A stretch of 64,000 nt of DNA from a bacterium (GCA_037131105.1 JBAXRQ010000001.1:637465-701464); one strand, 5' to 3'; counted from the first letter of the stretch, positions 1,322 to 56,220 are shown. Notes: generated from the letters alone by a model not told the origin. Numbers and translations are program-made.

Positions 1322-2464
1322 ATGCATATCGACCGCCGTCTCAGAAAACTTGAGAAGCCATTCAAGACTCTTAACCGGGTCGAGGTCTCCCGTGCCGCCG
1401 TGCTTCATAATTTCGACATCTTTCAGTCATTGATGCCAAGTGGCAGCCTCATCCCCGTCCTCAAGGCCAACGCCTACGGCCACGGATTGGTGCAGATCGC
1501 CGAGATACTGAAGGGGCGCAGCTTTCCGTATATTGCGGTGGACGGGTATTTCGAGGCCTTGCACATACGACAGGTCTCTCCCCAGCCCATTCTGGTCATG
1601 GGGGCCATTATGCCTGAGAATTTTAAGAGTATTAGGTTCAAGGATTTTACTTTTGTGGTGCATGACCAGCAGACCATCCAGGCCCTGGCAGATACCGGCA
1701 AGAAGATGACCGTCCACATCGAGCTTGAGACCGGCATGTCCCGGCACGGAATTTCCCTTGAGAAATTACCTGGGATCTTGAACGTATTACAAAAGTATCC
1801 CAAGCTTCGGGTCGAGGGAGTCATGAGCCATCTGGCTGATTCGGACAATCCGGATGAAGGATTCACCAAGGCCCAAGCCACTCGCTTTGACGAAGGAGTC
1901 GAGATCATTTTGGCACACGGATTCACGCCGACTCTTTTCCACCTGGCCCAGACCGCAGGCAGCGCCAAGCCCTTCTCAAAGCATGCCAATGCCATTAGGC
2001 CAGGCATCGGGCTGTATGGGATGAATCCGCTGGAAGAATCTGATCCTCAGTATTCGAAGCTTACAGGCCTTAAACCAGCCCTCACTCTCAAGAGCACAGT
2101 TACCAAGATCGTCGAAGTAGAATCTGGTGAGACGGTCAGCTACAGCCGGACCTTCAAGGCCAAGAAATCCACCCGGATCGGCGTCATCCCGGTGGGATAC
2201 TATGAAGGTCTGCCGCGTGCGCTCAGCAACAAGGGTAGCGTACTATGTAAGGGCAAGCCCCTACCTATCGCCGGCAGGATCAATATGAACCATACGATGG
2301 TTGACCTTGGGGATCTGCCAGTTGAGGTTGGTGATGAGATAGCGGTATTGGGTGGAGATGCAGGTACCGCGAGCTCCATCCAGACGCTAACCAAGGATTT
2401 CGGCCTGTTCCCCTATGAGACACTGGTTCACATCAGCGAGAGCATCAGAAGGGTCATCGTATAA
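1322..2464 (+). CDS. alr: alanine racemase
   Basis: PLP-binding motif VLKANAYGHG, overall length of 380 aa, and a C-terminal beta domain. Confidence 0.9.
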   Translation: MHIDRRLRKLEKPFKTLNRVEVSRAAVLHNFDIFQSLMPSGSLIPVLKANAYGHGLVQIAEILKGRSFPYIAVDGYFEALHIRQVSPQPILVMGAIMPENFKSIRFKDFTFVVHDQQTIQALADTGKKMTVHIELETGMSRHGISLEKLPGILNVLQKYPKLRVEGVMSHLADSDNPDEGFTKAQATRFDEGVEIILAHGFTPTLFHLAQTAGSAKPFSKHANAIRPGIGLYGMNPLEESDPQYSKLTGLKPALTLKSTVTKIVEVESGETVSYSRTFKAKKSTRIGVIPVGYYEGLPRALSNKGSVLCKGKPLPIAGRINMNHTMVDLGDLPVEVGDEIAVLGGDAGTASSIQTLTKDFGLFPYETLVHISESIRRVIV

Positions 2465-2473
2465 TCGTCGGTT

Positions 2474-3061
2474 TTACCTCGTTACCCGTTTCTTAATATC
2501 GTCAAAAAATAGGCCATAGAGCTCCTGGATAACCGGATCGACTTTCACCAGCCGGTTAGTACTCTCAAACAGACTGTCGAGGACCGGCTGCTCTTCCTTG
2601 GTAAATACCCTCACATTCTCATTCAGGAACTGCAATTGCCCCTCTATCCGGTCCAAAGCTTTGAGTACCTTGGCCTCAACGGTCTTCTGCTCTTCAAACT
2701 CCATCCAGAGGGCATGTATCTCATCACTGTCGTTTCCTAGCGCGTTCCGGATGCTTTCCATGGCCTGGGATTCCTGCTCCTTTTTTTGGGTTCGCCTATC
2801 ATGATTGGCAATGTGCTCCAGCACCGAAACATCCTTCGCCTCGATCTCCACAAGGTCGTGGATAACCGCCATTTTCAACGTTTTCAAAAGATCGATGCGC
2901 ACCGACAGTTTCGACTCAATGAGAATCAGCAGTAGGCTGAGGCTCCAGCAATGTTCGGCCACACTTTCAGGCGTACCGTTACTCTTCGAGCTGCGGCGCA
3001 GCTCGGTCTTCAGCCCTTCGGCATAGCGCATGAAGTCGATGATTTTCTGGGTGTCGCTCAT
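2474..3061 (-). CDS. HD-domain hydrolase, YfbR/HDDC2-like 5'-deoxynucleotidase
   Basis: ESVAEHCW...AVIHDLVEIEAKD HD motif pattern of the YfbR family. Confidence 0.7.
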   Translation of the reverse strand: MSDTQKIIDFMRYAEGLKTELRRSSKSNGTPESVAEHCWSLSLLLILIESKLSVRIDLLKTLKMAVIHDLVEIEAKDVSVLEHIANHDRRTQKKEQESQAMESIRNALGNDSDEIHALWMEFEEQKTVEAKVLKALDRIEGQLQFLNENVRVFTKEEQPVLDSLFESTNRLVKVDPVIQELYGLFFDDIKKRVTR

Positions 3062-3069
3062 AACCTCTT

Positions 3070-3654
3070 CTAGCTACCGAATAGCTTCTTTAGAAAACGG
3101 TAGTCGCCCTCCATTTCCTGCTTCACCTCCTCAAACTGCAGCTTGTCATTCCAGTCGCGCTCAATTTTACTGAGAGCCCACGCCTTAATCTTCTGAAGCT
3201 CCTTCCCCTCCTTGCCACCGGAATATGTGGCAAACAAATAGAAATCCCCAGCCAGGTGCACGCATGAATCAGCCGTGGCTAGCACCTTACCTTCCGGACT
3301 TTTGGGCGCATTCCCGTCGTAGCACGAGTGGTTGGCTATGGCATCCCCGATCACGATTTCCATTTCCACTTCGGTAAAGCCTGCTTCCTCGAGGATTTCC
3401 TTTGCCATCTTGTCAGTCTCCTCCTCATGACGCTCATCGTCCCGCTTCATCACCGAATCAGCGAGATCATGTAGTAATGCAGCTGCTCGAGAGAGTTCCG
3501 CATTTGCTCCGAATCGTTCAGCCAGCTCGGTCGCCTTGTCGGCCACCAGGAACACATGTCCGGCATACATCCAGTCGGCCCAGTCAGCCCTGCCCGGATG
3601 CTTGGCCAGATACTGCTCTTTGACCCGCTCTTCTACCACTGAGATCCTGCTCAT
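3070..3654 (-). CDS. HD-domain phosphohydrolase
   Basis: His-Asp pair (GHVFLVADKA...LLHDLAD); 194 aa; in tandem with the preceding HD gene. Confidence 0.65.
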   Translation of the reverse strand: MSRISVVEERVKEQYLAKHPGRADWADWMYAGHVFLVADKATELAERFGANAELSRAAALLHDLADSVMKRDDERHEEETDKMAKEILEEAGFTEVEMEIVIGDAIANHSCYDGNAPKSPEGKVLATADSCVHLAGDFYLFATYSGGKEGKELQKIKAWALSKIERDWNDKLQFEEVKQEMEGDYRFLKKLFGS

Positions 3655-6739: not shown

Positions 6740-7801
6740 ATGAAGATCGCTCTCCTGGCCCCTGCCGAACACCTCGTCCCGCCCATTACCTACGGTGGGA
6801 AGGAGTTGGTGATAGCCGAACTAGCCAATGGGCTGGTGGAAGCCGGCCACGAGGTGCATCTGTACGCCGCTCAAGGCTCTCAAACCAAGGCTACGCTGCA
6901 TAGCATAGCGGAGCAGACCATTCCAGCCCTTCTTGCAGACCTGGGTGAGTCAGAGAATCATAAGCTACACCTGGCCTACAGCCAGTCTGTATGTGCTAGG
7001 ACAGTGGAGATGGTTCGCGGCGAATCATATGACATCATCCACAACCACCAGCACTGGCAGTACGCCACCCTGGCTCATCTTTTTGACTGTCCACTGGTCA
7101 CCACGTGGCATACCGACCTGCGGGAGCAGTACGCACGCATGCTGGAAGAAATGTATCCTCATGGCAATTATGTCTCTATATCCGACAGCCAGCGCCGCGC
7201 CCGTCCCGGCATGCATTTTCTGGCCACAGCCTATAACGGCATCGAGATGGATATCTACCCTTTCAATCCCGACCCGCAGGATTACCTGGCGTTTCTAGGA
7301 AGGATCTCACCTGACAAAGGCGTGGTGCAGGCAATAGACACGGCTATAGCTGCCAGTATCAGACTGAAGATCGGCGGCTACATCGCTCCAGCCGAACGGA
7401 CTTATTTTGAGAATGAAATCAGGCCTCGTATTGACGGCGACAGGATCCAGTTCCTGGGCGAGATGAACCATTCCCAAAAAGTGGAGCTGCTTGGTGGTGC
7501 GCAGGCGGTGCTCGGCCTGGTACAATGGGAGGAGCCCTTCGGTATGTTCGTGGTCGAGGCCCTGGCCTGCGGTACTCCGGTCATCGCCACCCGCCGCGGC
7601 GCCATTCCCGAGATACTAGAAGACCGCCGAAACGGGTTTATAGTAGAAAACACTATCGAAGCTGCAGTGGGAGCCATCAAGAGGATCGGCGAGATCAGTC
7701 GCCAAGAATGCCGCTCAAGCGTGGAGCAGCGTTTCAGCGCCTCCAGCATGACCACAGCCTACGAAGCAGTCTACCACTCACTGACCAGCCCTAACCGTTA
7801 G
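6740..7801 (+). CDS. family 4 (GT-B) glycosyltransferase
   Basis: EEPFGMFVVEALACGTPVIATRRGAIPEIL GT4 C-terminal motif. Start chosen at MKIALLAP; the ORF could begin 60 nt upstream at 6680. Confidence 0.8.
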   Translation: MKIALLAPAEHLVPPITYGGKELVIAELANGLVEAGHEVHLYAAQGSQTKATLHSIAEQTIPALLADLGESENHKLHLAYSQSVCARTVEMVRGESYDIIHNHQHWQYATLAHLFDCPLVTTWHTDLREQYARMLEEMYPHGNYVSISDSQRRARPGMHFLATAYNGIEMDIYPFNPDPQDYLAFLGRISPDKGVVQAIDTAIAASIRLKIGGYIAPAERTYFENEIRPRIDGDRIQFLGEMNHSQKVELLGGAQAVLGLVQWEEPFGMFVVEALACGTPVIATRRGAIPEILEDRRNGFIVENTIEAAVGAIKRIGEISRQECRSSVEQRFSASSMTTAYEAVYHSLTSPNR

Positions 7802-7803
7802 CC

Positions 7804-8598
7804 ATGCCCAGCATCAGCGCCATCCTGCCCTGCTACAACCAAGGAGCCTTCTTGGATGAGGCGGTGCAGAGCCTGTTGGCCCAGAGCCTGGTGCCTGATG
7901 AGATCATCATCATTGATGACGGCTCCACTGAACCTGAGACGCTAGCAGTACTGGAAAAATCCTCCTGGCCCAAGACCCGGGTCATCCGCCAGGACAATGC
8001 CGGAGTATCTGCCGCCCGCAATGCCGGCATATCTGACTCGAAGGGAGACTATATAGTAAACCTAGACAGTGACGACAGGTTCGACCCGACGTTCCTAGAA
8101 AAAGCCTCCCAAATCCTGGACTCAGACGAGAAGGTCGGTGCCGTGGGAAGCTGGGTAGAAGTATTCGGCTCCCGCACCGGCACCTGGAAGCCCGTCGGCG
8201 GAACGACGGCTGACTTTCTGAGTGAAAACCAGTGCACCTCAAACAACCTGTTCCGTCGCACTTTCTGGGAAAAAACCGGAGGCTTCGATGAGACTATGAA
8301 AAAGGGTTTTGAGGACTGGGAGTTCTGGCTACACGGTACTTCTCTAGGCTGGTCAGTGAGCATCATCCCCGAGGTCCTGACCTTTTACCGAAAAAAGGAC
8401 GTCAAGTCAGGTATGGCCGTTGCTTATGAGAACAAGCCTGAGATCGTCGCTTACATCGCCAAGAAGCATCTGGCCCTGTACCAGGAGCACGTAGTACGGG
8501 TGCTTAAGGAAAAAGAAGAGCTGGTGCAGCGGGTATATAACTCTCCAGTGTACACGGCAGGACTGGAAGTACTCGGCAAAAACCATCCCCTTTCTTGA
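7804..8598 (+). CDS. family 2 glycosyltransferase
   Basis: SAILPCYNQ...IIIIDDGSTE...DSDD GT2 motifs; starts 3 nt after the GT4 stop. Confidence 0.8.
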   Translation: MPSISAILPCYNQGAFLDEAVQSLLAQSLVPDEIIIIDDGSTEPETLAVLEKSSWPKTRVIRQDNAGVSAARNAGISDSKGDYIVNLDSDDRFDPTFLEKASQILDSDEKVGAVGSWVEVFGSRTGTWKPVGGTTADFLSENQCTSNNLFRRTFWEKTGGFDETMKKGFEDWEFWLHGTSLGWSVSIIPEVLTFYRKKDVKSGMAVAYENKPEIVAYIAKKHLALYQEHVVRVLKEKEELVQRVYNSPVYTAGLEVLGKNHPLS

Positions 8599-9393: not shown

Positions 9394-9948
9394 TTACGCG
9401 CGCAAGGCCTGCAATATCCGGATGAGGTACTTCAGATGAACGTCTACCTTCCCGTTCATCTTAAGGCAGAAAGCATCGATCATCTGGTGAGTAGCCAAGC
9501 CGTGGAAGCGAATTTCCTCGGTGCCAAGGCCTGTCACCCGGAAGTCGAGCTCAATGTCGTACTTCTCAATCAGATACTTTGCAAGCGCCACTACCCGCTC
9601 AAACTGAAGCTCATTCCCATCAAGATCGGCAGCGTTCTGCCCTTGGATCTCAATGCCGATGCAACTTTCGTTGCCTTCAGCTTTGGCATGCCGGCACCAG
9701 GTATGCGGCTCAGGGACGCACTGGATTATGTCACCATCCGCCATTACGGCAAACTGAACCGACAAAGGCTCGACACCCTCCCGATACAACAGACGGGACA
9801 GGTGCTCAATGCCGCCTTTTTCAATGGGCTCTTGCCACCAGTGAAACACTAAACAGGTCGACTTGATCGTCCTGTCCGGATCCACCCAATGGCATATGGG
9901 CGCCACTTGAATGTCCAAGCCCTCTTTTGGAGTATCCAAATCCCTCAC
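9394..9948 (-). CDS. N-acetylmuramoyl-L-alanine amidase (Amidase_2/PGRP fold)
   Basis: HWW...DGDIIQCVPE...HA...NESCIGIEIQG fits the Amidase_2 profile. Confidence 0.5.
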   Translation of the reverse strand: MRDLDTPKEGLDIQVAPICHWVDPDRTIKSTCLVFHWWQEPIEKGGIEHLSRLLYREGVEPLSVQFAVMADGDIIQCVPEPHTWCRHAKAEGNESCIGIEIQGQNAADLDGNELQFERVVALAKYLIEKYDIELDFRVTGLGTEEIRFHGLATHQMIDAFCLKMNGKVDVHLKYLIRILQALRA

Positions 9949-10104
9949 CTCTTCCTCTTCTCTGCTCCTGGCTCGCCAGGCACCTGTTTTTCTTCAATCA
10001 GGAATTAATGGGTGACAGTACCATTTTTCAGGTGAAATGTCAATTCACTAGCCCCACTTCCCTACCTTTTTGCTATAGTCATCCTAGTACCCGCTAACCT
10101 CCTT

Positions 10105-10572
10105 ATGCATACCCGCTATATCGTCTCAGCCATTGTCCAGCAGAATGACAACATCCTTCTTGGTCGAAAGGCCAAGGGTAAGCCACCGTATCCTGACGCC
10201 TGGCACCTTCCCGGCGGAGGCATTGAGGAGCCTGAGCAAGCCGCAGCCCTCATTGAAAAGATGGAGCTCAACGACCCCTATCTCCATGCCGAGCTGCGTC
10301 GCGAGGTAATGGAAGAGCTCGGCATTGAGATCACAAATATCCGCTGCATCGTGCCGGAGTTCAGACCTACGGTCCGTCAAGCCGAGACCGTAAACAAAGA
10401 CGGTGAGCCAACTCATTACTATTTCCTCGAATATCTCTGCGACTTTGCAAGCGGAGAAGTAGTGCCCGGTGACGATCTGGCCGAAGCGCGTTGGTTCTCA
10501 AAGGACGAATTGAAGGGCCTCGTGCTTACCCCTCCCAGCCAAGAGATGTATCGCGAACTAGGCTGGATCTAA
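10105..10572 (+). CDS. NUDIX hydrolase
   Basis: Nudix box GGGIEEPEQAAALIEKMELNDPYLHAELRREVMEELGI. Confidence 0.8.
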   Translation: MHTRYIVSAIVQQNDNILLGRKAKGKPPYPDAWHLPGGGIEEPEQAAALIEKMELNDPYLHAELRREVMEELGIEITNIRCIVPEFRPTVRQAETVNKDGEPTHYYFLEYLCDFASGEVVPGDDLAEARWFSKDELKGLVLTPPSQEMYRELGWI

Positions 10573-10587
10573 CCTAATCAAGCGGCA

Positions 10588-11073
10588 ATGAGCAATGAGA
10601 TAGAACGTAAGTTTTTCCTCAAGGAAATGCCCGACATCAGTGGCATCACCAAGACTACACTTGAGCGCCATTTTCTGTTTGACGAGGACGGTGTTGAATT
10701 GCGTATCCAGAGTAATGGCAAGGACCACACCCTTCAGCGTAAGGTAACGCTCTCTGATAGCGAACACACCGTTGAAAAAATAGCCCTCAGCCAAAAAGAA
10801 TTCGATATTTTGAAGAAACTGTCTGTCGCCACCATCTCACGGGAAAGCTACCACCTTTCCGATGCTCCTCCGACTGATCTCCGCATCTATCACGGACCCT
10901 TCGAGAGATTGGTACGGGTGGAGTTTGAGTTTGAGAACGCCCCTGCCATGGAAGCCTTCCGGGCGCCCGACTGGGTCGGAAAGGAAATGACTGGCTCCCG
11001 CCTTTCCCGCGACTCCTGGCTTCTCAAACTAAGTAAGGAAGAGTTCGCCACCCTGCTCAGCCAACAGGCATAA
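10588..11073 (+). CDS. CYTH-domain protein (triphosphate tunnel metalloenzyme)
   Basis: N-terminal EIERKFFL (ExExK) signature; 161 aa. Confidence 0.7.
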   Translation: MSNEIERKFFLKEMPDISGITKTTLERHFLFDEDGVELRIQSNGKDHTLQRKVTLSDSEHTVEKIALSQKEFDILKKLSVATISRESYHLSDAPPTDLRIYHGPFERLVRVEFEFENAPAMEAFRAPDWVGKEMTGSRLSRDSWLLKLSKEEFATLLSQQA

Positions 11074-11138
11074 TGGTGCGTCCACGCCATCGCTGGGCGC
11101 CTGTGATATACTAAGTTTACAAACCTAAACATACCTGT

Positions 11139-12050
11139 ATGAGCCTCACCCTCCGTGAAATCCGCGAGAACTGCACCCGGGCCCGCAACCTGATGCAGCG
11201 CACCCATGACGAGAAGTACGCCGTCGGCGCCTTCAATATCGACAACCAGGAGACCCTCATCGCCGCCGTTGGCGCCGCCCAGAAGATGAACTCCCCCATC
11301 CTGGTTGAGGTGAGTGACGGCGAGGTCAAGGCCATGGGCCTGGATACTATCCGCGATATGGTGGACAACTATCGCCGCCAGTTCAACGTCGAGGTCTACG
11401 TCAACCTTGACCACAGCCCCAGCGTCGAGGCTGCCAAGGCCGGTATCGACGCCGGATTTGAGTTCATCCACATCGACGTTAGCCAGGCCAACCATGACGC
11501 CACTGACGAGCAGATCATTGCCGACACCCGTGAAGTCGTCGAATACGCCAAGTTCACCGGCGCCTCGGTAGAGAGCGAGCCACATTACTTCGGAGGCGGA
11601 TCCAACGTCTTCAAGGAGGCCATGGACTACGATGAGATCAAGAAGACCTTCTCCACACCTGACGGTTCCCGCGCCTTCCTGGAAGCCACCGGCATCGACA
11701 CCTTCGCCGCCGCCGTGGGCAACCTGCACGGCAAATACCCGGTACCGAAGGAGCTCGACCTTGAGCTCTTGCAGCAGATCCGCAACGTCATTTCCTGCAA
11801 CATCAGCCTACACGGCGGCAGCGGCACCCCCCTGCATTACTTTATCGACGCCGCCCGTATCGGGGTCAGCAAGATCAACATCAACACCGACATGCGCTTC
11901 GCCTTCAGGAAGACCCTGGAAAAGACCCTGGCTGAGCACCCTGACGAGTACGCAGTCATCAAGCTGATGCCCGAGGTTATCCAAAGCATCCAGCAGGTAG
12001 TCGAGGAAAAGATTGAGGCTTTCGGTTCCACCGGCAAGGCCCAGCTCTAA
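11139..12050 (+). CDS. fba: fructose-bisphosphate aldolase, class II
   Basis: GAFNIDNQETLIAAVGAAQKMNSPILVEVS and the LDHS zinc-ligand region. Confidence 0.9.
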   Translation: MSLTLREIRENCTRARNLMQRTHDEKYAVGAFNIDNQETLIAAVGAAQKMNSPILVEVSDGEVKAMGLDTIRDMVDNYRRQFNVEVYVNLDHSPSVEAAKAGIDAGFEFIHIDVSQANHDATDEQIIADTREVVEYAKFTGASVESEPHYFGGGSNVFKEAMDYDEIKKTFSTPDGSRAFLEATGIDTFAAAVGNLHGKYPVPKELDLELLQQIRNVISCNISLHGGSGTPLHYFIDAARIGVSKININTDMRFAFRKTLEKTLAEHPDEYAVIKLMPEVIQSIQQVVEEKIEAFGSTGKAQL

Positions 12051-12068
12051 GAACATCAGCGTTTCAGT

Positions 12069-12581
12069 GTGAACGCCCCGCCCCGCCTCTACTTCATCAC
12101 CGGCATTTCAGGTTCCGGTAAGACCAGTGTGGCTCGTAGGCTGCAAGAGCTGGGAGAAGTGACCCTGGATAGCAAGCTCCAAGAAGGCCTCTTTCTTTTC
12201 ACAGATAAGGATGGCAAGGCTCCCGAGGATTACCGCCCCCGTGACCAGGACTGGAAGGAGAACTATTCCTGGGTGCTAAACAAGCGTCTTTTTGATACCC
12301 TCATGGAGGAGAACCGCCGCGCTAAGCGCGTCTTTCTCTGTGGTGGGGCCGATGATCTTATGCGCTACTGGAGCGCCGGCGAAAAGGTATTTCTACTATG
12401 GATCGATCTTCCCACCATGCTGAAACGACTGGACCGACAAAATCTCGGCAAGGACGACGTGCTGCGCGAACGACTGGAACGCTACCAAAACACCAAGATC
12501 GAGGCAGGCGCCGTGCCCATTGACGCCATTCGTCCGGTAGAGGAAGTGGTCCAGCAGATCCTAGATCAGACAACCCCCTAA
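12069..12581 (+). CDS. P-loop kinase-like ATPase (AAA_33-like)
   Basis: Walker A GISGSGKTS. Confidence 0.5.
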   Translation: MNAPPRLYFITGISGSGKTSVARRLQELGEVTLDSKLQEGLFLFTDKDGKAPEDYRPRDQDWKENYSWVLNKRLFDTLMEENRRAKRVFLCGGADDLMRYWSAGEKVFLLWIDLPTMLKRLDRQNLGKDDVLRERLERYQNTKIEAGAVPIDAIRPVEEVVQQILDQTTP

Positions 12582-12590
12582 CCCATCCCT

Positions 12591-12992
12591 ATGGACGACT
12601 GTATTTTCTGCAAGATCGCCGCTGGCGAAGCCAAGTCCTGGAAAGTGAAGGAGAATGACACCGCCTACGCCTTCCTGGACATTCACCCAACCAATCCCTA
12701 CCACACCCTGGTCATCCCCAAGGCGCACTACCGGGACATCTTTGACATTCCCAAGGACGAACTGGCAGGGATTATGTCACTAGTCAAAGACATAACAGAC
12801 CTCTACAGCGCCAAGCTGGGCATCCAGAACGTGCAGATAGTAAACAGCTCCGGGGCCGAGGCTCAGCAGGATGTGTTTCATATTCATTTCCACATAGTTC
12901 CCCGCCACGAAGGCGACGGTCAGGACGTCACATGGACCACCCACCCTGAGCTTGCCGAGAAGTTCCCTGAGCTGCTGGCGAAGCTCAATTAA
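12591..12992 (+). CDS. HIT family (histidine triad) nucleotide hydrolase
   Basis: HIHFHIVPR histidine triad; N-terminal CIFCKI. Confidence 0.85.
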   Translation: MDDCIFCKIAAGEAKSWKVKENDTAYAFLDIHPTNPYHTLVIPKAHYRDIFDIPKDELAGIMSLVKDITDLYSAKLGIQNVQIVNSSGAEAQQDVFHIHFHIVPRHEGDGQDVTWTTHPELAEKFPELLAKLN

Positions 12993-33076: not shown

Positions 33077-33733
33077 ATGACTCCAAGTCCAGCCACCCAA
33101 CAGCTCGAGGAGTTCTTCTCCCACTACACCACTGTCAGCTTTGACAAAGGCGAGAGGATCCTGCGCGAATACGACTCACCAAACGGCGTCTTTTATATCA
33201 AGAAAGGCGTTGCCCGCATCTACCTGATCTCCGAAGAGGGCAACGAGCTTACCGCCCTACTACACTCACCCAAGAGCATACTGCCCTTGCGCTGGGCCAT
33301 GACTGGCTTACCTAACATCTACAACTACCAGGCCATGACCGCCGTGGAGATGTACCGGGCTCCCCGCGAGGGCTTCCAGGACTTCTTGAAGCACCATCCC
33401 GAGGCCTGCTTCCAGGTCTCCCAGCAGCTGGTGGCCGACTGTAGTGCCCTAGTGTACCGCATGCAGCACATCGTCTTCGGCAACGCCCACTCCAAAGTCT
33501 CCTCAGTGGTCCTTACCGCCGCCAAGCGCTTCAGCGTTAAGAACGAGAAGAACGGTGACATGATAGTGGAAGTTCCCTTCACCCACCAGCAGATCGCTGA
33601 TTCGGCAGGTATCACCCGTGAGACCGCCAGCCTGGAGATGAAGAAACTGAAGGAAGAAGGCCTAATCAGCTATAAGGGTCGTTCGCTTATCATTCACGAC
33701 ATGGAAAGCCTAGCCAAAGCTTCGTTCCTATGA
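33077..33733 (+). CDS. Crp/Fnr family transcriptional regulator
   Basis: cNMP-binding-like N-terminal domain and C-terminal HTH (THQQIADSAGITRETASLEMKKLKEEGLI). Confidence 0.8.
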   Translation: MTPSPATQQLEEFFSHYTTVSFDKGERILREYDSPNGVFYIKKGVARIYLISEEGNELTALLHSPKSILPLRWAMTGLPNIYNYQAMTAVEMYRAPREGFQDFLKHHPEACFQVSQQLVADCSALVYRMQHIVFGNAHSKVSSVVLTAAKRFSVKNEKNGDMIVEVPFTHQQIADSAGITRETASLEMKKLKEEGLISYKGRSLIIHDMESLAKASFL

Positions 33734-34044
33734 GCATTCAGAGATTCATCACCAGTCTCATGGAAGAAGACACTGCTCCTGGTGAGGCAGTGGCCCGTGA
33801 GGTAAAGGCCGGACTGGCTCCGGTCAGCTCGTACCTGCGCCGGGCAAGTGCCGGTATGGTCGTAGTACTCAGCAGTGCCATCGCCTGGCTGGGAGGAGTA
33901 TTCTGCCTGCTCATGGCCCTCTTTTTCTATCTCGCCAAGCTGGACAGCTTCGTAGTGCCCGCCATCCTTACCGCCGGCTTCAGCTGGCTGCTGGGACTAA
34001 TTATGGTCATCATCGGGTTCTGGCTGCTGCGACGGCCACGCTAA
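33730..34044 (+). CDS. small 2-TM membrane protein (holin-X-like topology)
   Basis: ATGA overlap with the crp-like gene; charged N-terminus then two TM helices and RRPR at the C-terminus. Confidence 0.4.
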   Translation: MSIQRFITSLMEEDTAPGEAVAREVKAGLAPVSSYLRRASAGMVVVLSSAIAWLGGVFCLLMALFFYLAKLDSFVVPAILTAGFSWLLGLIMVIIGFWLLRRPR

Positions 34045-34064
34045 TATATCACTAACGTACACTG

Positions 34065-34271
34065 ATGAGAGAATGGTCAATCCTCTTCCCCGATAAAGAA
34101 AAAGATCCTAAAGATGACCTGGAAGGGGAGATAATCTCCCATGATCTTCCGCCCCTGACTGAGAATCCTTTCGGCAAGAAGAATCCAGGTACTGATACTC
34201 CTCCCCACCATGTCCCTGAAGTACCCCCAGCAAGTGACCGGCCGACTTACCAAGAGCCTCCCCAGGATTAA
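34065..34271 (+). CDS. hypothetical Pro/acidic small protein
   Basis: ORF only; low complexity. Confidence 0.15.
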   Translation: MREWSILFPDKEKDPKDDLEGEIISHDLPPLTENPFGKKNPGTDTPPHHVPEVPPASDRPTYQEPPQD

Positions 34272-34834
34272 TCCTTTCGGAAATCATAGACTCGGATCTC
34301 TTTCTGCCAGCTCTTTAGCGGGATAATTTCTTTTGGCCTAATTCCCTTTATCTCAAAGGTAAGGCAGATAACCAGGCAACCCCGAAATATCCCCCGCTGG
34401 TACATCTTGTCTAATATAGTCCCGGTAAGGTAGCAGTACACGACGGTCGGCTTGGTGGGACGATAACTAAGTAGATCCTCGCGCCGCCACTGCATGGGAA
34501 GATTTCGATGTTTCAGATATGATCGGAGACGACCGGCCCAGTAGACACTGGTGCGCAGCTCCACGGCGACTATGCTCTTCCAGGAAAAGCGTTGACCAAG
34601 AAACGTTGCCACCGTGGCAATGCCGGATCCCGGCTCGTACAGCTCGTACTCCTCAGTGTCTTTGACATAGCGGCTGACGACGTCCTCCAAAATGGGGCCT
34701 TGTTCACCAAGGTCTGAACCCATGTACACCACCCGGTCAGACTTCTGATAACGAGTACCCTCAACCAAATAAAAAATCCCACCAAGGGTAATGGGTAGGA
34801 GAAGGATGATAATGATAATCTGGAGGATAAGCAT
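34268..34834 (-). CDS. membrane-anchored hypothetical protein, possibly SAM-methyltransferase-like
   Basis: Start chosen at MLILQIIIIILLLP (TM helix). LYEPGSGIATVA resembles the MTase motif I. The gene is AT-richer than its neighbours, and a TATAAT box lies ~6 nt upstream of the ATG. Confidence 0.35.
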   Translation of the reverse strand: MLILQIIIIILLLPITLGGIFYLVEGTRYQKSDRVVYMGSDLGEQGPILEDVVSRYVKDTEEYELYEPGSGIATVATFLGQRFSWKSIVAVELRTSVYWAGRLRSYLKHRNLPMQWRREDLLSYRPTKPTVVYCYLTGTILDKMYQRGIFRGCLVICLTFEIKGIRPKEIIPLKSWQKEIRVYDFRKD

Positions 34835-35076
34835 AGTACTATAATAGCATCTAGAAGCCACCCAATAACTACCCTGCTGCCTGCAAAGCAGGCTAACCAA
34901 GTTGTAAGGGAAGTGTGCCTCGTCAAGGTATCTTCGGATACCCTTCCTCCGCACTCTCCCCTTTCACTGCGGTTATCTGCTTTTCGGATCAAGGATAATT
35001 ATGTGATGACTTCTGGAAACGACTAAGGGCGCGCAGCAGTTGCTGCGCGCCCTTTGCGAAATACAAACGGCGTTTC

Positions 35077-35910
35077 CTAGGCGCCTTCCAATGGTTCGGT
35101 ACGATAGCAGAGTGCCCTCATGAGCATGTCGACTTGCTCGGGAGTGTCCGTACAGGCGGGAATCCTCTCCCAAAGGTCATGGTCAGCCCGGCAGATGGCT
35201 TGAAGGGTAGAGTTTTCTACTCCCACAGCCGGAGCCAACAGACGGGGATGACCTACCACCATGTTGGGGCTAAATCGCTCCTGAACCATCTTATAAGCTC
35301 CTACAAAATGCTCAGCCGTTAGTCCCCTGGGAAAGTACATGTTGACGCCCTTACCTGCACAGTCGTTGTGCTTGCAGGTATAGACTTCTCTAACCTCTAA
35401 GCGACGTCTGTGCAATAGGGCCTTGCGAACAAGGATGGTCAAGGCTCGTGGGACCATGAATGGACCCACCCCTGGTGGCCCAGCGATATAGAAGATTGGG
35501 AAGTTTTCGCTTCCGGGAGCCGTCAGCGAGTGCGTACACAACTCCTGAACAATCTTTTGCTGCACCAACCGTGAGTCCATACATCCGGTCAGGAGTCCGA
35601 TGACCAGATTAGGCTGCTCCGACTCAAGTACCCTTTGCCGGATTGCCTCCAGCATCGTGCACCCAAATTCTTTACGAGCCCACTCATCGTCATTCAAAAT
35701 TTCGTGTACAGCACCGTTAGGGCCGTATATAAAGTAGGCCAGAAGGTCCAGGTCCACCTGGAGGCCACCCACAACATCCTGTTCCATACCAGTCCCCACC
35801 CGGGCAATCCTGCCACATTCTGAAGCGGCATCATCTACCCCGCTTAGATCCTCTTCAGCCAATTGCTCACTTCCTTTCTTTTCCCCTGTCCTCAGCATTA
35901 CAGCATGCAC
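35077..35910 (-). CDS. hypothetical protein with beta-carbonic-anhydrase-like zinc motifs
   Basis: Hydrophobic strand plus CMDSR (LVIGLLTGCMDSRL), then ~70 aa later HNDCAG (VYTCKHNDCAGKG), which is the CxDxR...HxxC(G/A) pattern of beta-CAs. The start is uncertain, at 35910, 35898 or 35787. Confidence 0.4.
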   Translation of the reverse strand: MHAVMLRTGEKKGSEQLAEEDLSGVDDAASECGRIARVGTGMEQDVVGGLQVDLDLLAYFIYGPNGAVHEILNDDEWARKEFGCTMLEAIRQRVLESEQPNLVIGLLTGCMDSRLVQQKIVQELCTHSLTAPGSENFPIFYIAGPPGVGPFMVPRALTILVRKALLHRRRLEVREVYTCKHNDCAGKGVNMYFPRGLTAEHFVGAYKMVQERFSPNMVVGHPRLLAPAVGVENSTLQAICRADHDLWERIPACTDTPEQVDMLMRALCYRTEPLEGA

Positions 35911-36050
35911 GGACCCTTAGATATGTAGACTATCTTTTGTAATATGTCAAGATGCTTCTTCATTTCCCCCATGTAGATCTTTACGTTTTCCAGGGAAAAG
36001 GCTAGGCTGGAGAATGTGAACCTCACCTATCTCTAACCTCATTCATACCT

Positions 36051-37109
36051 ATGGCTTCCACCCGCTCCACCGGTGCCTCGTCACTGCTTACCCTTAACAA
36101 AGAGCAGAGCGCCCTGTTTTGCTCACCTGATGCCCACAACGCCCGCCGGCTTTACCGCGCCAAGCACCCCACCGCCGTGGCCGCCTTTAAGTGTATGGAC
36201 GGGCGCCTGAATCTTTCAGTCATCACCAAGACCCAAGCGGGACTAATCCAGCCGTTCCGAAATCTGGGTGGCAAGTTCGACCTTGGCTGGCCCTACTTTG
36301 GCAAGATGGTAAAGGACTGGGTAGATTCCTCCATTTCCCAGGGACGTGACTGTCTGATCCTGGTCACCTATCATTTCTCAAAGGGAGACACCCACCGCGG
36401 CTGCCGGGGATTCAACTATGACGTGGACAAGGCCCAGGAAAGCACTTCACACCTCAAAAAGCAGGTCGAGGATATCTTTGGCAGCCATCACAGCGTCATT
36501 TATCCCATCCAGGTTGGCATTGAGACCGATGAGGACGCCCTGCTTATCCATGGCGAAAATGGCGAGATCCTCGATCTGGGCAAGGAAAGTGACCTTTCCG
36601 AGTCCGATCTGCTAATCCGACTTGCCAAGCTTTTCCCAAGCATGAAGCAGCGGGTACGCCAGGATCTGCTTCGACTCCTCGTTGGTAACCAGCGCCATAT
36701 CCATGACATTCGCGAGGAGAACCGTCCCATCGCCGATGCTGAGCACAAGGAGTGGGTATTGGCGGTTGGCCGTGGTTTCGACTGGCTACATACGCTAAAT
36801 ACTGCCCTAATCGTCGGCCCTTACAGTCCTGATCTAGCCGATCCTATCCGGGTAGCCGCCGGTCTGCTCTGGGACAATATCGCCAGTGGGCGCATTCCCA
36901 AGACTACCGAGATGGTACTCCTAGCCTCTAGTCCTAGCTATGAGCTGGGTGGTACCGAGTGGCAGATCGCCGTGGAAAAATCCAACTTCATGGCCCACTT
37001 CGCCATGGACGTGGTAGCCGAACACGCGCCCGAGCTTGCCAAGATTATCAAGCCGGTAGTCGGTGTGGTGGATATGCATACGCTCCTCTTCCATCCCCAG
37101 AAATACTAA
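36051..37109 (+). CDS. hypothetical protein with an N-terminal beta-carbonic-anhydrase-like domain
   Basis: AVAAFKCMDGRLN, then QPFRNLGG (like beta-CA FVxRNxGN), then ILVTYHFSKGDTHRGCRG; an unassigned ~150-aa C-terminal extension follows. Confidence 0.4.
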   Translation: MASTRSTGASSLLTLNKEQSALFCSPDAHNARRLYRAKHPTAVAAFKCMDGRLNLSVITKTQAGLIQPFRNLGGKFDLGWPYFGKMVKDWVDSSISQGRDCLILVTYHFSKGDTHRGCRGFNYDVDKAQESTSHLKKQVEDIFGSHHSVIYPIQVGIETDEDALLIHGENGEILDLGKESDLSESDLLIRLAKLFPSMKQRVRQDLLRLLVGNQRHIHDIREENRPIADAEHKEWVLAVGRGFDWLHTLNTALIVGPYSPDLADPIRVAAGLLWDNIASGRIPKTTEMVLLASSPSYELGGTEWQIAVEKSNFMAHFAMDVVAEHAPELAKIIKPVVGVVDMHTLLFHPQKY

Positions 37110-37196
37110 GGCACGTCAATCCCCATGCTGATTGACTGATCTGGCGGTGACTGGTACGCTGACCCTGAACTTAGTTCGTCTATTTTTGTTTCGCCT

Positions 37197-38003
37197 GTGA
37201 CTCCGAATATTTCTTTGGCCGCGGAAGTCGTCTTCCACATCGGCCCGTTTGCCATCACCAATAGCATCTTCACGGCCTGGCTGGTCAGCCTCGGCCTACT
37301 ACTCTTTGGTGCCTTCATACGGTTCAATCTAAAAAAGATGGGCGGAAAGCTCCAGACCGGTTTGGAGCTCATCTACGACTGGCTAATCGAGACCGCTAAC
37401 GGCATCATCGGTAACCGTGCAGCCACCGCTGAGGTACTTCCCTATCTGCTGACCATCTTTCTCTTCATTCTCTTCTCGAACTGGTCCGGCCTACTACCTG
37501 GCTTTAACTCGGTTGGCTTCCACGAGATGAAGGAGGGACACGAAATCCTAGTACCTCTGCTGCGCGCACCTACCAGCGACCTGAACATGGTGGCGGTACT
37601 TGCCCTCTTCTCCATGGGCTACGTCCAATACCTGGGCTTCAAGTACGCTGGCTTCAAGGGCTACGCCGGCAGATTCGTCAACATCAGTAACCCCATCGGT
37701 TTCTTTGTTGGAGTCCTAGAGCTGCTTGGAGAGTTCACCAGGATCATCAGCTTTACCTTTCGACTATTCGGCAACGTCTTTGCAGGAGAGGTACTGATTA
37801 TGGTAATGTTCTACCTGACGATGACGCTATTACCCTATATAGCCATCATTCCGCTGCCATTCTTCCTCTTGGAAATGTTCGTAGGTCTGATCCAGGCCTT
37901 TATCTTCACCTTCCTTACCATCATCTTCGTCTCCCTGGCCGTCATCTCGCATGATACCGAGGGGCACGCACATGGCGGAGAAGAGCTTCACCTTACTACC
38001 TAA
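37197..38003 (+). CDS. atpB: ATP synthase F0 subunit a
   Basis: GTG start; ISFTFRLFGNVFAGEVL conserved Arg region; 5-6 TM helices. Confidence 0.9.
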   Translation: MTPNISLAAEVVFHIGPFAITNSIFTAWLVSLGLLLFGAFIRFNLKKMGGKLQTGLELIYDWLIETANGIIGNRAATAEVLPYLLTIFLFILFSNWSGLLPGFNSVGFHEMKEGHEILVPLLRAPTSDLNMVAVLALFSMGYVQYLGFKYAGFKGYAGRFVNISNPIGFFVGVLELLGEFTRIISFTFRLFGNVFAGEVLIMVMFYLTMTLLPYIAIIPLPFFLLEMFVGLIQAFIFTFLTIIFVSLAVISHDTEGHAHGGEELHLTT

Positions 38004-38028
38004 TCTATAGCCGTAACCCGGAGACCGT

Positions 38029-38256
38029 ATGAATCCAGAGACCCTGAAACTTATCGCCATGGGTGCCACCATCGCTGTCGGCGCTATCGCACCTGGCATC
38101 GCCATGGGCATGATCGGAAGCAAGAGCGTTGAGGCCATCGGCCGCAACCCAGAGACTGAGAACGCCGTCCGTACCGCCATGGTGCTTGGTCTGGCCTTCG
38201 TGGAGTCACTGGCCATCTTCTCCCTGGTCGTCGCCCTGATCATCCGCTTCGTCTAA
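38029..38256 (+). CDS. atpE: ATP synthase F0 subunit c
   Basis: 75 aa, two TM helices, GRNPE loop, carboxylate in FVESLAIF; GGAGACC Shine-Dalgarno. Confidence 0.9.
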   Translation: MNPETLKLIAMGATIAVGAIAPGIAMGMIGSKSVEAIGRNPETENAVRTAMVLGLAFVESLAIFSLVVALIIRFV

Positions 38257-38259
38257 CCA

Positions 38260-38742
38260 ATGGAAGCACTCGGCATAAATCTGACTTGGTTCCTGTTCCA
38301 GCTTGGCAACTTTATCGTGCTGCTGGGCGGACTTACCTTTCTTCTGCACAAGCCAATCATGAAGCTCCTGGCGAGCCGGCAGCATGAGATCAAGGAAGGT
38401 CTGGAGAATGCCGAGAAAGTGCGTCTAGAGATGGAGATCGCCCGCCGCCAGCAGGAAGAACTACTGGAAGAGGCTCGCATGGAAAGTGCCGCCCTCCTGA
38501 AGGAGACCCGCGAGCAGTCCAAGAAGCTGGAGGAAGAGCTGCGCAAGGACGCTGCCGCCCACAGCGAGGAGCTGCGCAAGAAAGCCATGCAGGAGCTGGC
38601 CTCCGAGCAGGAGCAGTTGCGCAAGGAACTGAAAGGAGAGCTTGCCGGCATGGTCATCCAAGCCACTGAGAAAGTACTCGGCCATGAAGTGAAGTCAGCC
38701 GACAAGGAACAGGGCGTCAAGAAGCAGATTGAAAACCTATAG
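38260..38742 (+). CDS. atpF: ATP synthase F0 subunit b
   Basis: N-terminal TM helix then a long charged helix. Confidence 0.8.
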   Translation: MEALGINLTWFLFQLGNFIVLLGGLTFLLHKPIMKLLASRQHEIKEGLENAEKVRLEMEIARRQQEELLEEARMESAALLKETREQSKKLEEELRKDAAAHSEELRKKAMQELASEQEQLRKELKGELAGMVIQATEKVLGHEVKSADKEQGVKKQIENL

Positions 38743-39073
38743 CACTGCCATGACCTTACCTGAATCCACCGCCCAGACCATCGTAAAGTTCCTCAAGGAC
38801 AACGGTCAGTACGACCAGCTGCCCGCCATTACCGAGATCCTACAGAAAGAGGCCATCCGCAGCCAGCGCATTTCCATTATCTCCGCTGTCGCTGTCCCTG
38901 AAAAAGAGCGTAAGGAACTGGAGGCCACTCTCTTCAAGAAATGGGGTGAGCATGAAACCGGTTACACGGTGGACGAAAGCTTGCTTTCCGGCATGCTTAT
39001 CCGCTACCAGAACCAGCTGCTCGACCTTACCGGCAAAGGCAGCCTTACCCAGCTGTCACAGGCCCTGAAATAA
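38729..39073 (+). CDS. atpH: ATP synthase F1 subunit delta (short form)
   Basis: Operon position between b and alpha. The C-terminal region resembles OSCP/delta, but at 114 aa it is only ~60% of the usual length. Confidence 0.55.
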
Positions 39074-39086
39074 TCGTAACCCCGCC

Positions 39087-40604
<1,518 letters not shown>

Positions 40605-40606
40605 CA

Positions 40607-41470
40607 ATGCCCGCTCCTCGCGAACTTCGCCAGCGCATCCGGTCGGTAACCTCGACCAAGCAGATCACCAAAGCTATGGAGCTGGTGTCGGCTTCACGTA
40701 TGCGTCGGGCCACCGAGGCTACCCTAGCTAATCGCCCCTACGCCACCCAGTTGGAGGTCATGGTACAGCGGATTATTAGCTCGTCCAGTGACCAACCTCT
40801 TAGCCACCCCCTCCTTGAAGAGCAGAAGGGAGACAAAACCCTGCTCATTGTTATCGCTTCTGACCGGGGCCAGGCAGGTGCTTATAATTCAAATCTGGGA
40901 AAACTGGCCAGTCAGTTTGCAAGCGATGAAAAGGCAGCCGGTCGCACCGTAACCTCGATTACGCTTGGAAAGAAGGCCGAACAGGCCATGAGTAAAGCCG
41001 GTATCGACGTTCTGCAGCGGTTTCCTCTTCCCAGTGGGCAGATCGAACTTTCCGATATGCACGCCCTCAATCGCTACGTTGTGGAGCGCTTTCTCCATCA
41101 CGGTATCAGCAAGGTGAGCGTTCTTTACACCGAGTTTCATTCCATGCTTATTCAGAAGGCGGTTATCCAGCCCCTGCTTCCCCTTACTCCCCCCAACCCG
41201 TATCCAGCCAGCGGGGAGCTTATCTTTGAGCCGGACCCTCTGACCGTATTGTCAGAGCTTCTGCCATACCTGGTGGAGATACGGCTGTTCCATTCCGTTC
41301 TAGAGGCAGGTGCTTCTGAGCACTCCGCCCGCCGCATGGCCATGAAGAGCGCCACCGACAATGCCAACTCCATTATCGACCGCCTGACCCTTACCTACAA
41401 CCGTCTGCGCCAGAGCGCTATCACCCAGGAGATCGCTGAGATCACTTCGGGTGCTGCCGCTTTAGAGTAG
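40607..41470 (+). CDS. atpG: ATP synthase F1 subunit gamma
   Basis: LRQRIRSVTSTKQITKAMELVSASRMRRA N-terminus. Confidence 0.9.
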   Translation: MPAPRELRQRIRSVTSTKQITKAMELVSASRMRRATEATLANRPYATQLEVMVQRIISSSSDQPLSHPLLEEQKGDKTLLIVIASDRGQAGAYNSNLGKLASQFASDEKAAGRTVTSITLGKKAEQAMSKAGIDVLQRFPLPSGQIELSDMHALNRYVVERFLHHGISKVSVLYTEFHSMLIQKAVIQPLLPLTPPNPYPASGELIFEPDPLTVLSELLPYLVEIRLFHSVLEAGASEHSARRMAMKSATDNANSIIDRLTLTYNRLRQSAITQEIAEITSGAAALE

Positions 41471-41489
41471 TCACGGACCAGCCACGTAA

Positions 41490-42877
<1,388 letters not shown>

Positions 42878-42878
<1 letters not shown>

Positions 42879-43132
42879 TGCTCAAGATCACCATCACCAC
42901 TCCTGACGGGCTGCTGTTCCAGGGCGAGGCCGACGAGGTCGTCGTCCCCACAAAGAGTGGCATGATCGGCGTGCGCACCAACCACCTGCCCCTTGTAAGC
43001 CTGCTGAAGCCGGGCCAGCTCGAGGCCAAGAAGGACGGTGGCCCAAGTCATAAGTTCCAGGTACGGGAAGGGTATGTGAAGGTAGGACCACAGGAAGTCT
43101 CGGTCATAGCGAGAAGCGCCAGGAAGGCTTAG
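42878..43132 (+). CDS. atpC: ATP synthase F1 subunit epsilon (beta-sandwich domain only)
   Basis: MLKITITTPDG... N-terminal domain typical of epsilon; 84 aa, lacking the C-terminal helical hairpin. Confidence 0.7.
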
Positions 43133-49486: not shown

Positions 49487-49523
49487 AGAGAAAAAGAACC
49501 AACATAGTTGGTTCTTTTTCTCT
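49487..49523 (-). terminator. perfect 17-bp-stem hairpin abutting the CCA end of tRNA-Pro(GGG)
   Basis: agagaaaaagaaccaac-ata-gttggttctttttctct; identical to the copy at 56108-56144. Confidence 0.6.
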
Positions 49524-49599
49524 GGTCGGGGAGAGAGGATTTGAACCTCCGGTCTCAGGACCCCCAGCCCTGCGCATTAGGCCACTATGCTACTCCCCG
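49523..49599 (-). tRNA. tRNA-Pro (anticodon GGG), CCA encoded
   Basis: Manual cloverleaf: acceptor CGGGGAG/CTCCCCG, D-arm GCAT-AGTGGCCTA-ATGC, anticodon arm CAGGG-CTGGGGG-TCCTG, variable loop AGACC, T-arm GGAGG-TTCAAAT-CCTCT, discriminator A, then CCA. Confidence 0.8.
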
Positions 49600-56107: not shown

Positions 56108-56144
56108 AGAGAAAAAGAACCAACATAGTTGGTTCTTTTTCTCT
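56108..56144 (-). terminator. perfect 17-bp-stem hairpin abutting the CCA end of tRNA-Pro(CGG)
   Basis: Identical sequence to 49487-49523. Confidence 0.6.
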
Positions 56145-56220
56145 GGTCGGGGAGAGAGGATTTGAACCTCCGGTCTCGGGAACCCGAATCCCGCGCATTA
56201 GGCCGCTATGCTACTCCCCG
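56144..56220 (-). tRNA. tRNA-Pro (anticodon CGG), CCA encoded
   Basis: Same acceptor, D- and T-arms as the GGG copy; anticodon arm CGGGA-TTCGGGT-TCCCG. Confidence 0.8.

Follow-up and report, generated by a model that had tools for sequence, protein, structure and literature searches.

A CsoSCA2-type carbonic anhydrase gene beside the atp operon of a CPR-type bacterium, and a divergently transcribed neighbour with carbonic-anhydrase-like motifs

The 64,000-nucleotide stretch GCA_037131105.1 JBAXRQ010000001.1:637465-701464 (hereafter the window, with positions counted from its first letter) carries, next to an ATP synthase (atp) operon, two divergently transcribed genes whose products, protein 1 (P1) and protein 2 (P2), both contain zinc-site motifs of the beta-class carbonic anhydrases (beta-CA). 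A preliminary description of the sequence had suggested that they could be a pair of highly divergent beta-CA-fold metalloenzymes, possibly heteromeric. Taken as a whole, the data make it probable that P2 is a CsoSCA2, that P1 is encoded by a separate and real gene for which a beta-CA-like fold is a guess, that the two do not form an obligate pair, and that the locus belongs to a loose arrangement found in bacteria of the Candidate Phyla Radiation (CPR, or Patescibacteria). The name CsoSCA2 was given in 2022 to the non-carboxysomal homologues of the carboxysomal carbonic anhydrase CsoSCA ("Atypical Carboxysome Loci: JEEPs or Junk?", PMC9164163). The secure part of this interpretation is that P2 is a further member of this published, biochemically unstudied family.

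The open reading frame (ORF) listing of the window places P2 at 36051..37109 on the plus strand (352 aa, ATG start) and P1 at 35077..35910 on the minus strand (277 aa from a GTG start). An alternative TTG start of P1 at 35862, giving 261 aa, is used by the ENA gene call (P0121). The Shine-Dalgarno-like sequence AAGGAAGTGAG stands before this TTG and no comparable site precedes the GTG at 35910; the TTG appears to be the likelier start. The spacer between the two genes (35911..36050) measures 140 bp; with the P1 start at 35862 it would be 188 bp. On its minus strand, a perfect TTGACA (35950-35945) stands 17 nt ahead of a poor −10 sequence (TACATA), and a promoter scan of the spacer reported 0 sites. 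The F1Fo ATP synthase operon atpB-E-F-H-A-G-D-C (37197..43132, plus strand) is encoded on the strand of P2 and begins 87 bp downstream of it. Its first gene, atpB at 37197, matched Pfam ATP-synt_A (E 3.5e-43), the remaining subunits correspond to Pfam-annotated atp genes of related loci, and an atpC-like ORF of 84 aa (42878-43132) closes the operon. The gene coordinates, the 140-bp divergent spacer and the adjacent atp operon were all as first described.

A sequence scan also confirmed every motif position quoted for the two proteins, namely CMDSRL at 110 and HNDCAG at 181 in P1, and CMDGRL at 48, QPFRNLGG at 67-74 and HRGCRG at 115 in P2. In P1, the corresponding codons lie on the minus strand at 35569-35583 (CMDSR) and 35359-35370 (HNDC). 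The window has 257 six-frame stop-to-stop segments of 80 aa or more; P1 and P2 alone among them combine CxDxR with HxxC(xG) 55-85 residues later, and no other contains H..C.G in any form. When P1 was shuffled 200,000 times, the motif pair arose with a probability of 6.8e-4 (HxxC) or 5.5e-5 (HxxCxG). The shuffles, this census and the conservation of the motifs in three distant homologues of P1, described below, place the motif pair of P1 above chance.

The identity of P2 as a CsoSCA2-type, compact, non-carboxysomal beta-class carbonic anhydrase rests on Pfam, a family profile, a structure model compared by Foldseek, and invariant active-site residues. P2 matched Pfam PF20686 (CsoSCA_cat) with 22.2 bits (cutoff 21.5, E 1.1e-4), and many of its homologues, of which more than 2216 were found, carry a precomputed PF20686 match. 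The claim that both proteins are otherwise unrecognisable is thus valid for P1, which has no Pfam, NCBIfam or PDB match, and not for P2. A profile built from a 51-sequence alignment of the P2 family (A1) was compared with PDB sequences and gave significant E values for CsoSCA chains only (2.4e-7 to 2.2e-6; 2.4e-7 for 8thm and 4.9e-7 for 2fgy). The same alignment was the input for an AlphaFold2 (AF2) model with a predicted local distance difference test score (pLDDT) of 93.7 and a predicted template modelling score (pTM) of 0.91. Foldseek ranked 8thm, 9g4t and 2fgy best against the PDB (E 3.6e-16 to 2e-15, TMq 0.75-0.77); the best five structures were all CsoSCA, and about 386 aligned columns covered both domains. 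Canonical beta-CAs ranked after CsoSCA and were much weaker. These results support P2 as a beta-CA-fold metalloenzyme candidate, as initially proposed, and the family profile and predicted structure place it within the published CsoSCA2 family.

The model and the alignments divide P2 into an N-terminal stretch of about 40 residues (36051..36170) with two short predicted helices (residues 9-24 and 26-38), a catalytic beta-CA domain (36171..36575, from a hidden Markov model alignment to 2fgy) and a C-terminal defunct beta-CA-like domain (36576..37106, from that alignment and Foldseek). What had been taken for an extra C-terminal domain of about 150 aa is instead the feature by which CsoSCA is defined, a duplicated beta-CA domain that is defunct. 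The active-site residues of CsoSCA are, in Halothiobacillus neapolitanus numbering, C173, D175, R177, H242, C253, H397 and E399 (PMC9164163 Table 2, PMC12646314). In the HMMER alignment to 2fgy, the chain numbering of which is offset by 28, they map onto C48, D50, R52, H108, C118, H232 and E234 of P2. All seven mapped residues were invariant in 86/86 sequences, a set of CsoSCA2 ORFs drawn from 81 loci and the window that includes CPR, Nitrosomonas, Nitrospira, Thiobacillus and other bacteria. Their codons are found at 36192-36206 (C48-M-D50-G-R52), 36372-36374 (H108), 36402-36404 (C118), and 36744-36746 and 36750-36752 (H232 and E234, aligned with H397 and E399 of the second CsoSCA domain). 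Of the zinc-site residues initially listed, C48, D50, R52 and C118 were thus retained and H115 was not: H108, within Y-H-F-S, is the probable zinc histidine, because it aligns with H242 of CsoSCA and is present in 86/86 sequences, whereas H115 is kept in only 66/86. The spacing of the ligands would accordingly be the CsoSCA-type H-x9-C and not HxxC.

From these residues, the first domain of P2 would hold a single zinc site (C48/H108/C118) with a D50-R52 dyad, and the second domain would have lost its own site and contribute H232 and E234 to the active site, so that one polypeptide with two beta-CA-like domains would form a fused pseudo-dimer. P2 may thus be a cytoplasmic zinc carbonic anhydrase, its most likely function being to convert CO2 and bicarbonate/H+ into each other in the cytoplasm. 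A site scan of the plus strand found no terminator-like site between P2 and atpB, and P2 is therefore probably transcribed together with the atp operon located 87 bp downstream.

The compact variant of CsoSCA2 has been described as a protein of about 350 aa with a 40-residue N-terminus predicted to form two helices, an active and a defunct domain, and all catalytic residues (PMC9164163). P2 shares its size, two-helix N-terminus, domain pair and active-site residues, and is 49% identical to the homologue of Nitrosomonas oligotropha found in our genome scan, the CsoSCA2 of this species being the example aligned in that study (PMC9164163). The protein itself shows no difference from CsoSCA2. CPR phyla were already given there as CsoSCA2 hosts (Table 1 footnote), and the authors ask why CsoSCA2 is so widespread (PMC9164163). 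Compared with the carboxysomal CsoSCA of Halothiobacillus neapolitanus (2FGY/9G4T) and Cyanobium (8THM), P2 has the same fold over both domains, the same Cys/His/Cys zinc ligands (H-x9/10-C), the Asp-Arg dyad and the second-domain His/Glu. However, it is only 16-18% identical to these proteins, has shorter loops and lacks the N-terminal domain of about 144 residues that carries the Rubisco-binding peptide. Its gene is not flanked by carboxysome genes: a Crp-family regulator, small unknown genes and the atp operon surround it, outside any carboxysome locus. Its codon usage is typical for the genome (score 0.278). The catalytic domain of P2 superposes weakly on canonical beta-CAs (PF00484; E. 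coli Can/CynT, pea CA 1EKJ and CcaA 5SWC; Foldseek E 2e-3 to 2e-2), and P2 differs from them in that its histidine ligand stands 9 residues, not 2, before the cysteine. Neither P1 nor P2 matched PF00484 (Pro_CA; for P2, at E<=1).

The assignment of P2 also meets some contrary observations. The Pfam CsoSCA_cat score barely exceeds its cutoff, the NCBIfam carboxysomal equivalog TIGR02701 gave 31.7 bits against a cutoff of 241, and the clustering of the putative ligands rests on the alignment and on invariance. An alternative is that P2 has the CsoSCA fold and performs another reaction, such as COS/CS2 hydrolysis, or non-catalytic sensing of CO2 or bicarbonate. The beta-CA fold is known to host CS2 and COS hydrolases as well as carbonic anhydrases, and the role of a carbonic anhydrase in CPR hosts, which are non-autotrophic, is not obvious. 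CsoSCA2 proteins, moreover, are yet to be studied biochemically (PMC9164163). The seven CsoSCA active-site residues are nevertheless invariant throughout the 86 sequences, pointing to one chemistry, as in the characterised enzyme, and we regard another activity of P2 as very improbable.

Several observations on CsoSCA2 genes were made in passing. Adjacent paralogues occur in tandem (L014:8730-9836 and 9938-11020; L026:9818-11035 and 11067-12248; L066:9881-11017 and 11691-12845) or divergently (L051:1086-2189 on the minus strand and 2356-3426 on the plus strand), in genomes of both the CPR and the Nitrosomonas/Nitrospira types. The CPR and Nitrosomonadaceae proteins are about 50% identical, and in a midpoint-rooted neighbour-joining tree of L001-L081 the Nitrosomonadaceae clade was nested among CPR sequences, which hints at a possible inter-phylum transfer of CsoSCA2. 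The titles of several third-party-annotation metagenome-assembled genomes ("uncultured Gammaproteobacteria", "Saccharibacteria") seem inconsistent with their gene content.

P1 appears to evolve fast and to belong to a tiny family that has no annotation. An exhaustive phmmer search against 1.84e9 representatives returned P1 itself and three other proteins, P0122 (E 2.2e-8), P0123 (8e-6) and P0124 (2.1e-5), all of which match P1 over residues ~100-270; word-indexed homologue searches with P1 and with the alignment of its family (A3) returned only P1 itself and P0123. The four proteins share 23-26% identity and 16 invariant columns, including C110, M111, D112, P145, G147, H181, C184 and A185 of P1. 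The family is thus very small and, judging from these searches, probably limited to bacteria closely related to this CPR-type one.

The surroundings of these genes are also conserved. At the P0122 locus (L085), the order is TPR, delta', zf_Tbcl, M50, a 197-aa homologue of the window's orf228, P0122 and then divergent atpB-E-F-H. The window shows the same order between 29970 and 38000, with the addition of a Crp regulator, two small ORFs and CsoSCA2. At the P0123 locus (L082-L084), delta', TPR, zf_Tbcl and M50 are followed by a 255-aa gene and P0123; these four genes are common to L085 and L082, and the orf228 homologue is found in L085 only. Within this block, P1 diverges fastest (26% identity versus 40-68% for the flanking genes). 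The gene order shows the P1-family genes as likely positional orthologues, and we conclude from the homologues and their synteny that P1 is most probably a genuine, rapidly evolving gene.

As to the fold of P1, its family carries three motif blocks, C-M-D-x-R/K, P-G-G(N) and H-x-x-C-A, each standing behind a hydrophobic strand, and the blocks are ordered and spaced as in beta-CA. C-x-D-x-R and H-x-x-C are spaced in P1 as they are in canonical beta-CAs. A low-confidence single-sequence model of P1 shows a beta-alpha-beta-alpha-beta succession in which both motifs stand at strand ends. The single Pfam family to which its relatives show any match is Pro_CA_2 (PF20393, "putative carbonic anhydrase"), a model of 125 positions with a gathering cutoff of 30 bits: residues 49-123 of P0124, from CMDAR to HTDC, matched positions 11-86 with 18.0 bits (E 0.0035), and P0122 scored 12.6 bits (E 0.17). 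As a positive control, a true beta-CA from L060 scored 158.8 bits with PF00484. A BLASTP comparison of P1 with P2 gave nothing significant. With hhalign, P1 or A3 against CsoSCA2 gave P values between 0.059 and 0.007, the motifs being colinear; the lower of these, with both motifs in line, was obtained for the P1 family and the catalytic domain of CsoSCA2. The P1 family aligned with canonical beta-CA at P 0.006 over 47 columns around H-x-x-C, and the controls mostly gave P values of 0.08-0.66. We treated these comparisons as non-decisive at this alignment depth because a genuine pair, CsoSCA2 and canonical beta-CA, scored only P 0.018, no better than P1, and because one reversed-sequence control reached P 0.0016.

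On balance, we slightly favour the view that P1 is a single-domain, beta-CA-like zinc protein with Cys/His/Cys(+Asp) ligands; carbonic anhydrase activity of P1 is less likely than such a fold. A number of findings speak against this view. P1 has no Pfam match at E<=10, PF00484 included, the family consensus matches no carbonic anhydrase model in Pfam, P0123 has no Pro_CA_2 match, and the scores of P0124 and P0122 both fall under the 30-bit cutoff. The A3 profile found no relevant match among PDB sequences. The single-sequence AF2 model of P1 has a pLDDT of only 34 and is unusable, and the hhalign probabilities were only 3-7% in addition to the reversed control mentioned above. R114, conserved in P0122 and P0124, is replaced by K in P0123, and P1 itself lacks the Asn of P-G-G-N. 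It is thus conceivable that P1 has an unrelated fold and either binds metal or is a thiol protein, with no carbonic anhydrase character and with C-x-D-x-R and H-x-x-C acquired by convergence. The lack of a significant profile match to any carbonic anhydrase family, the non-decisive hhalign results and the Arg to Lys change fit this explanation, as does a family of about 186 aa found beside CsoSCA2 in other genomes, which has C-x-D-x-D-H and not C-x-D-x-R, indicating that such motifs vary. However, each of the three blocks of P1 stands behind a hydrophobic strand in beta-CA order and spacing, the sole Pfam family touched is a putative carbonic anhydrase whose match spans both motifs, and P1 adjoins a genuine beta-CA gene in the window. 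An unrelated fold is thus considered unlikely, if well within consideration, and the beta-CA-like fold is retained as the better guess.

Another explanation is that P1 is a chance ORF without function or a decaying pseudogene. Its coding score (0.058) is the lowest in the window and falls below the training minimum (0.072), its GC content at third codon positions is low (GC3 0.57 versus 0.66), and it has almost no homologues. However, the ORF is uninterrupted over 277 codons, with no competing ORF over it and no other ORF longer than 66 aa in that region, its GC pattern is coding-like (GC1>GC2), a Shine-Dalgarno-like site precedes the TTG start, and three syntenic homologues keep the Cys/Asp/His/Cys residues. 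A chance ORF was rejected on account of the homologues and the synteny, and we give the absence of function almost no credence. The proposal that P1 and P2 are the two subunits of a single beta-CA-fold heteromer, with a common divergent promoter for their expression, has in its favour that the genes are adjacent, divergent and both endowed with the motifs. Other CPR loci also show a small C-x-D...H-x-x-C gene beside CsoSCA2, and in L082 and L086 another CxDxR/HxxC gene stands before the P1 homologue. However, no CsoSCA2 lies in the flanks fetched around the 3 other P1-family loci (L082-L084, L085 and L086; ±10 kb, or less on shorter contigs), and no P1-family ORF was found at about 85 other CsoSCA2 loci (L001-L081 and L087-L090), all proteobacterial ones included; in the genome scan, CsoSCA2 occurs without a P1-family neighbour in Nitrosomonas, Nitrospira, Thiobacillus and others. 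In addition, the divergence of P1 far outpaces that of the genes around it, carboxysomal CsoSCA is active by itself (PMC9164163), and CsoSCA2 already appears to form a fused pseudo-dimer whose active site is complete. The lack of conserved pairing together with the fused pseudo-dimer argues against an obligate heteromer of P1 and P2 and against a conserved pairing specific to their families, and the specific pairing initially proposed was not supported; a heteromeric enzyme appears improbable.

The window seems instead to exemplify a looser arrangement that recurs in CPR genomes and has CsoSCA2, some small C-x-D...H-x-x-C protein and the atp operon as neighbours. In a species-representative sample, atp genes were located within 10 kb of CsoSCA2 and on the same strand in 14 CPR-type genomes, and the linkage was also seen in 2/5 further CPR CsoSCA2 loci that were fetched individually. 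No atp linkage was found at the CsoSCA2 loci of Nitrosomonas, Nitrospira and Thiobacillus (proteobacterial/Nitrospira). The linked loci are L001, L006, L010, L012-L015, L017, L019, L020, L023, L027, L052, L063 and L088, in addition to 36051-43132 of the window, and they fall into at least 6 separate clusters of a neighbour-joining tree. CsoSCA2 lies upstream of atpB in some of them and downstream of atpC/atpD in others; in L020 and L023 it comes after atpB-E(-F). A side observation at L063 is a polytopic membrane ORF of 465 aa (7029-8426, plus strand) between the atp operon and CsoSCA2, which by eye resembles a cation/proton antiporter.

Small proteins with similar signatures were found next to CsoSCA2 in other CPR genomes. 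The unannotated family of about 186 aa (A4) stands directly beside CsoSCA2 in 12 of them, with copies at L088:8124-8681(-), L015:11095-11655(-), L017:11122-11682(-), L006:3561-4121(-), L077:1-654(+), L010:11108-11680(+), L090:6337-6894(+), L052:7769-8353(+), L063:10142-10726(+), L007:4628-5251(-) and L001:7348-7896(+). Its C41, H69, H117 and C120 are invariant and its D43, G76 and P119 nearly so, within the motifs C-x-D-x-(D/R)-H, N-G-G and H-x-P-C-G. Searches of Pfam and the PDB returned no match for it, and its profile found nothing relevant among PDB sequences. In L006, L015, L017 and L088, the A4 gene is divergently upstream of atpB, the place occupied by the P1 homologue in L085. In L004 (9029-9862) and L005 (9028-9861), a plus-strand ORF of 277 aa with VRCMDTR...AGGSG...HERCA lies directly upstream of CsoSCA2 on the same strand; it has no Pfam match and aligned with the 186-aa family at P 0.012 over 108 columns with hhalign.

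The genes that precede two of the P1 homologues also carry such motifs. A gene of 255 aa stands before P0123 (L082:9136-9903, plus strand; KCIDERV...YHEGCGAA) and one of 263 aa before P0124 (L086:9121-9912, plus strand; VCIDGRI...HSNGCGAA). The two have no Pfam or PDB match and no mutual BLASTP similarity. Separately, an H-Q-E...F-S-G..F stretch in the 263-aa protein recalls H397-x-E399 of CsoSCA. The consensus sequences of A3, A4 and a further alignment, pairB, gave no carbonic anhydrase match in Pfam, and NCBIfam gave no match for the small proteins.

The relaxed pattern C.D.{50,95}H..C was found in 11/233 ORFs within 400 nt of CsoSCA2 versus 17/2367 ORFs farther away (Fisher p 1.3e-5), and the enrichment persisted when the window's own case and one overlapping ORF were dropped (p 2.4e-4). 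The loci behind this enrichment share phylogeny and are thus not independent, many contigs are short, and P1 has no detectable homology to the 186-aa family (P 0.53 for the P1 family), all of which weakens the case for the arrangement. Because the families are not detectably homologous and the loci not phylogenetically independent, we keep the arrangement as a lead, not a result.

The CsoSCA2 family and its presence in CPR hosts were already known; what goes beyond the earlier study is the atp linkage and the families with putative metal sites around CsoSCA2. That study mentions neither linkage to the atp operon nor an adjacent small C-x-D...H-x-x-C gene (PMC9164163), and a literature search returned no paper linking CsoSCA or carbonic anhydrase with CPR and ATP synthase, and none on PF20393. 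In these tiny and largely fermentative CPR genomes, the atp linkage leads to the hypothesis that CsoSCA2 has a role in proton/bicarbonate handling at the membrane. A tie between carbonic anhydrase chemistry and proton/bicarbonate handling around ATP synthase in these small-genome bacteria is speculative. More specifically, CsoSCA2, a small metal-site protein and atp could form a loose module in CPR that couples CO2/bicarbonate/proton chemistry to ATP synthase, for example by supplying protons locally or buffering the pH in cells that are fermentative and poor in respiration; the small proteins (the P1 family, the ~186-aa family and the 255-277-aa variants) would then be new minimal beta-CA-like enzymes or regulatory partners. 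We hold such a module to be improbable. DabA of the DAB inorganic-carbon pumps, reportedly a divergent beta-CA-like protein of about 800-1000 aa with an adjacently encoded membrane partner, DabB, may serve as a functional analogy, being a precedent for carbonic anhydrase chemistry coupled to membrane energetics through a cation/proton-translocating partner. The window contains nothing of the DabA/DabB kind, and the likeness is meant as an analogy. If the small families with metal signatures are beta-CA-folded, they would widen the range of sequences in this enzyme class, and they could be catalytic or regulatory partners. The locus alone is mostly explained, and the P1 gene and the CsoSCA2/small-protein/atp arrangement are the parts worth following up.

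Among the neighbouring genes, orf228 (34268..34954, minus strand) lies downstream of the P1-family gene as a conserved neighbour; in L085, the 197-aa gene adjoining P0122 shares 40% identity with it (E 3e-41). The window's orf228 has no Pfam match, and its L085 homologue has only a faint match to DOT1 (E 0.23). Its N-terminus contains a hydrophobic segment, an E-P-G-S-G stretch is present, and a weak tblastn match links it to an ORF with a GCGD motif in L007; orf228 may be a membrane-anchored, methyltransferase-like protein. The 2-kb bin with the lowest GC content in the window (34001-36000; 0.510 versus ~0.55) coincides with P1 and orf228, and the codon scores of the two genes (0.058 and 0.108 versus a mean of 0.24) are atypical, though both are syntenic with relatives. 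A recently imported island comprising P1 and orf228 was considered in view of the lower GC and odd codon usage, and rejected, as L085 has the same gene order.

Between the M50 peptidase and orf228, the region 33077-34271 (plus strand) encodes a Crp/Fnr-family regulator (cNMP_binding and HTH_Crp_2), a membrane ORF of 104 aa and a Pro-rich ORF of 68 aa. These three ORFs are absent from the syntenic L085 block and, together with CsoSCA2, look like insertions relative to L085. The sole RNA genes detected in the window are two tRNA-Pro genes on the minus strand, at 49523-49599 and 56144-56220, with the anticodons GGG and CGG.

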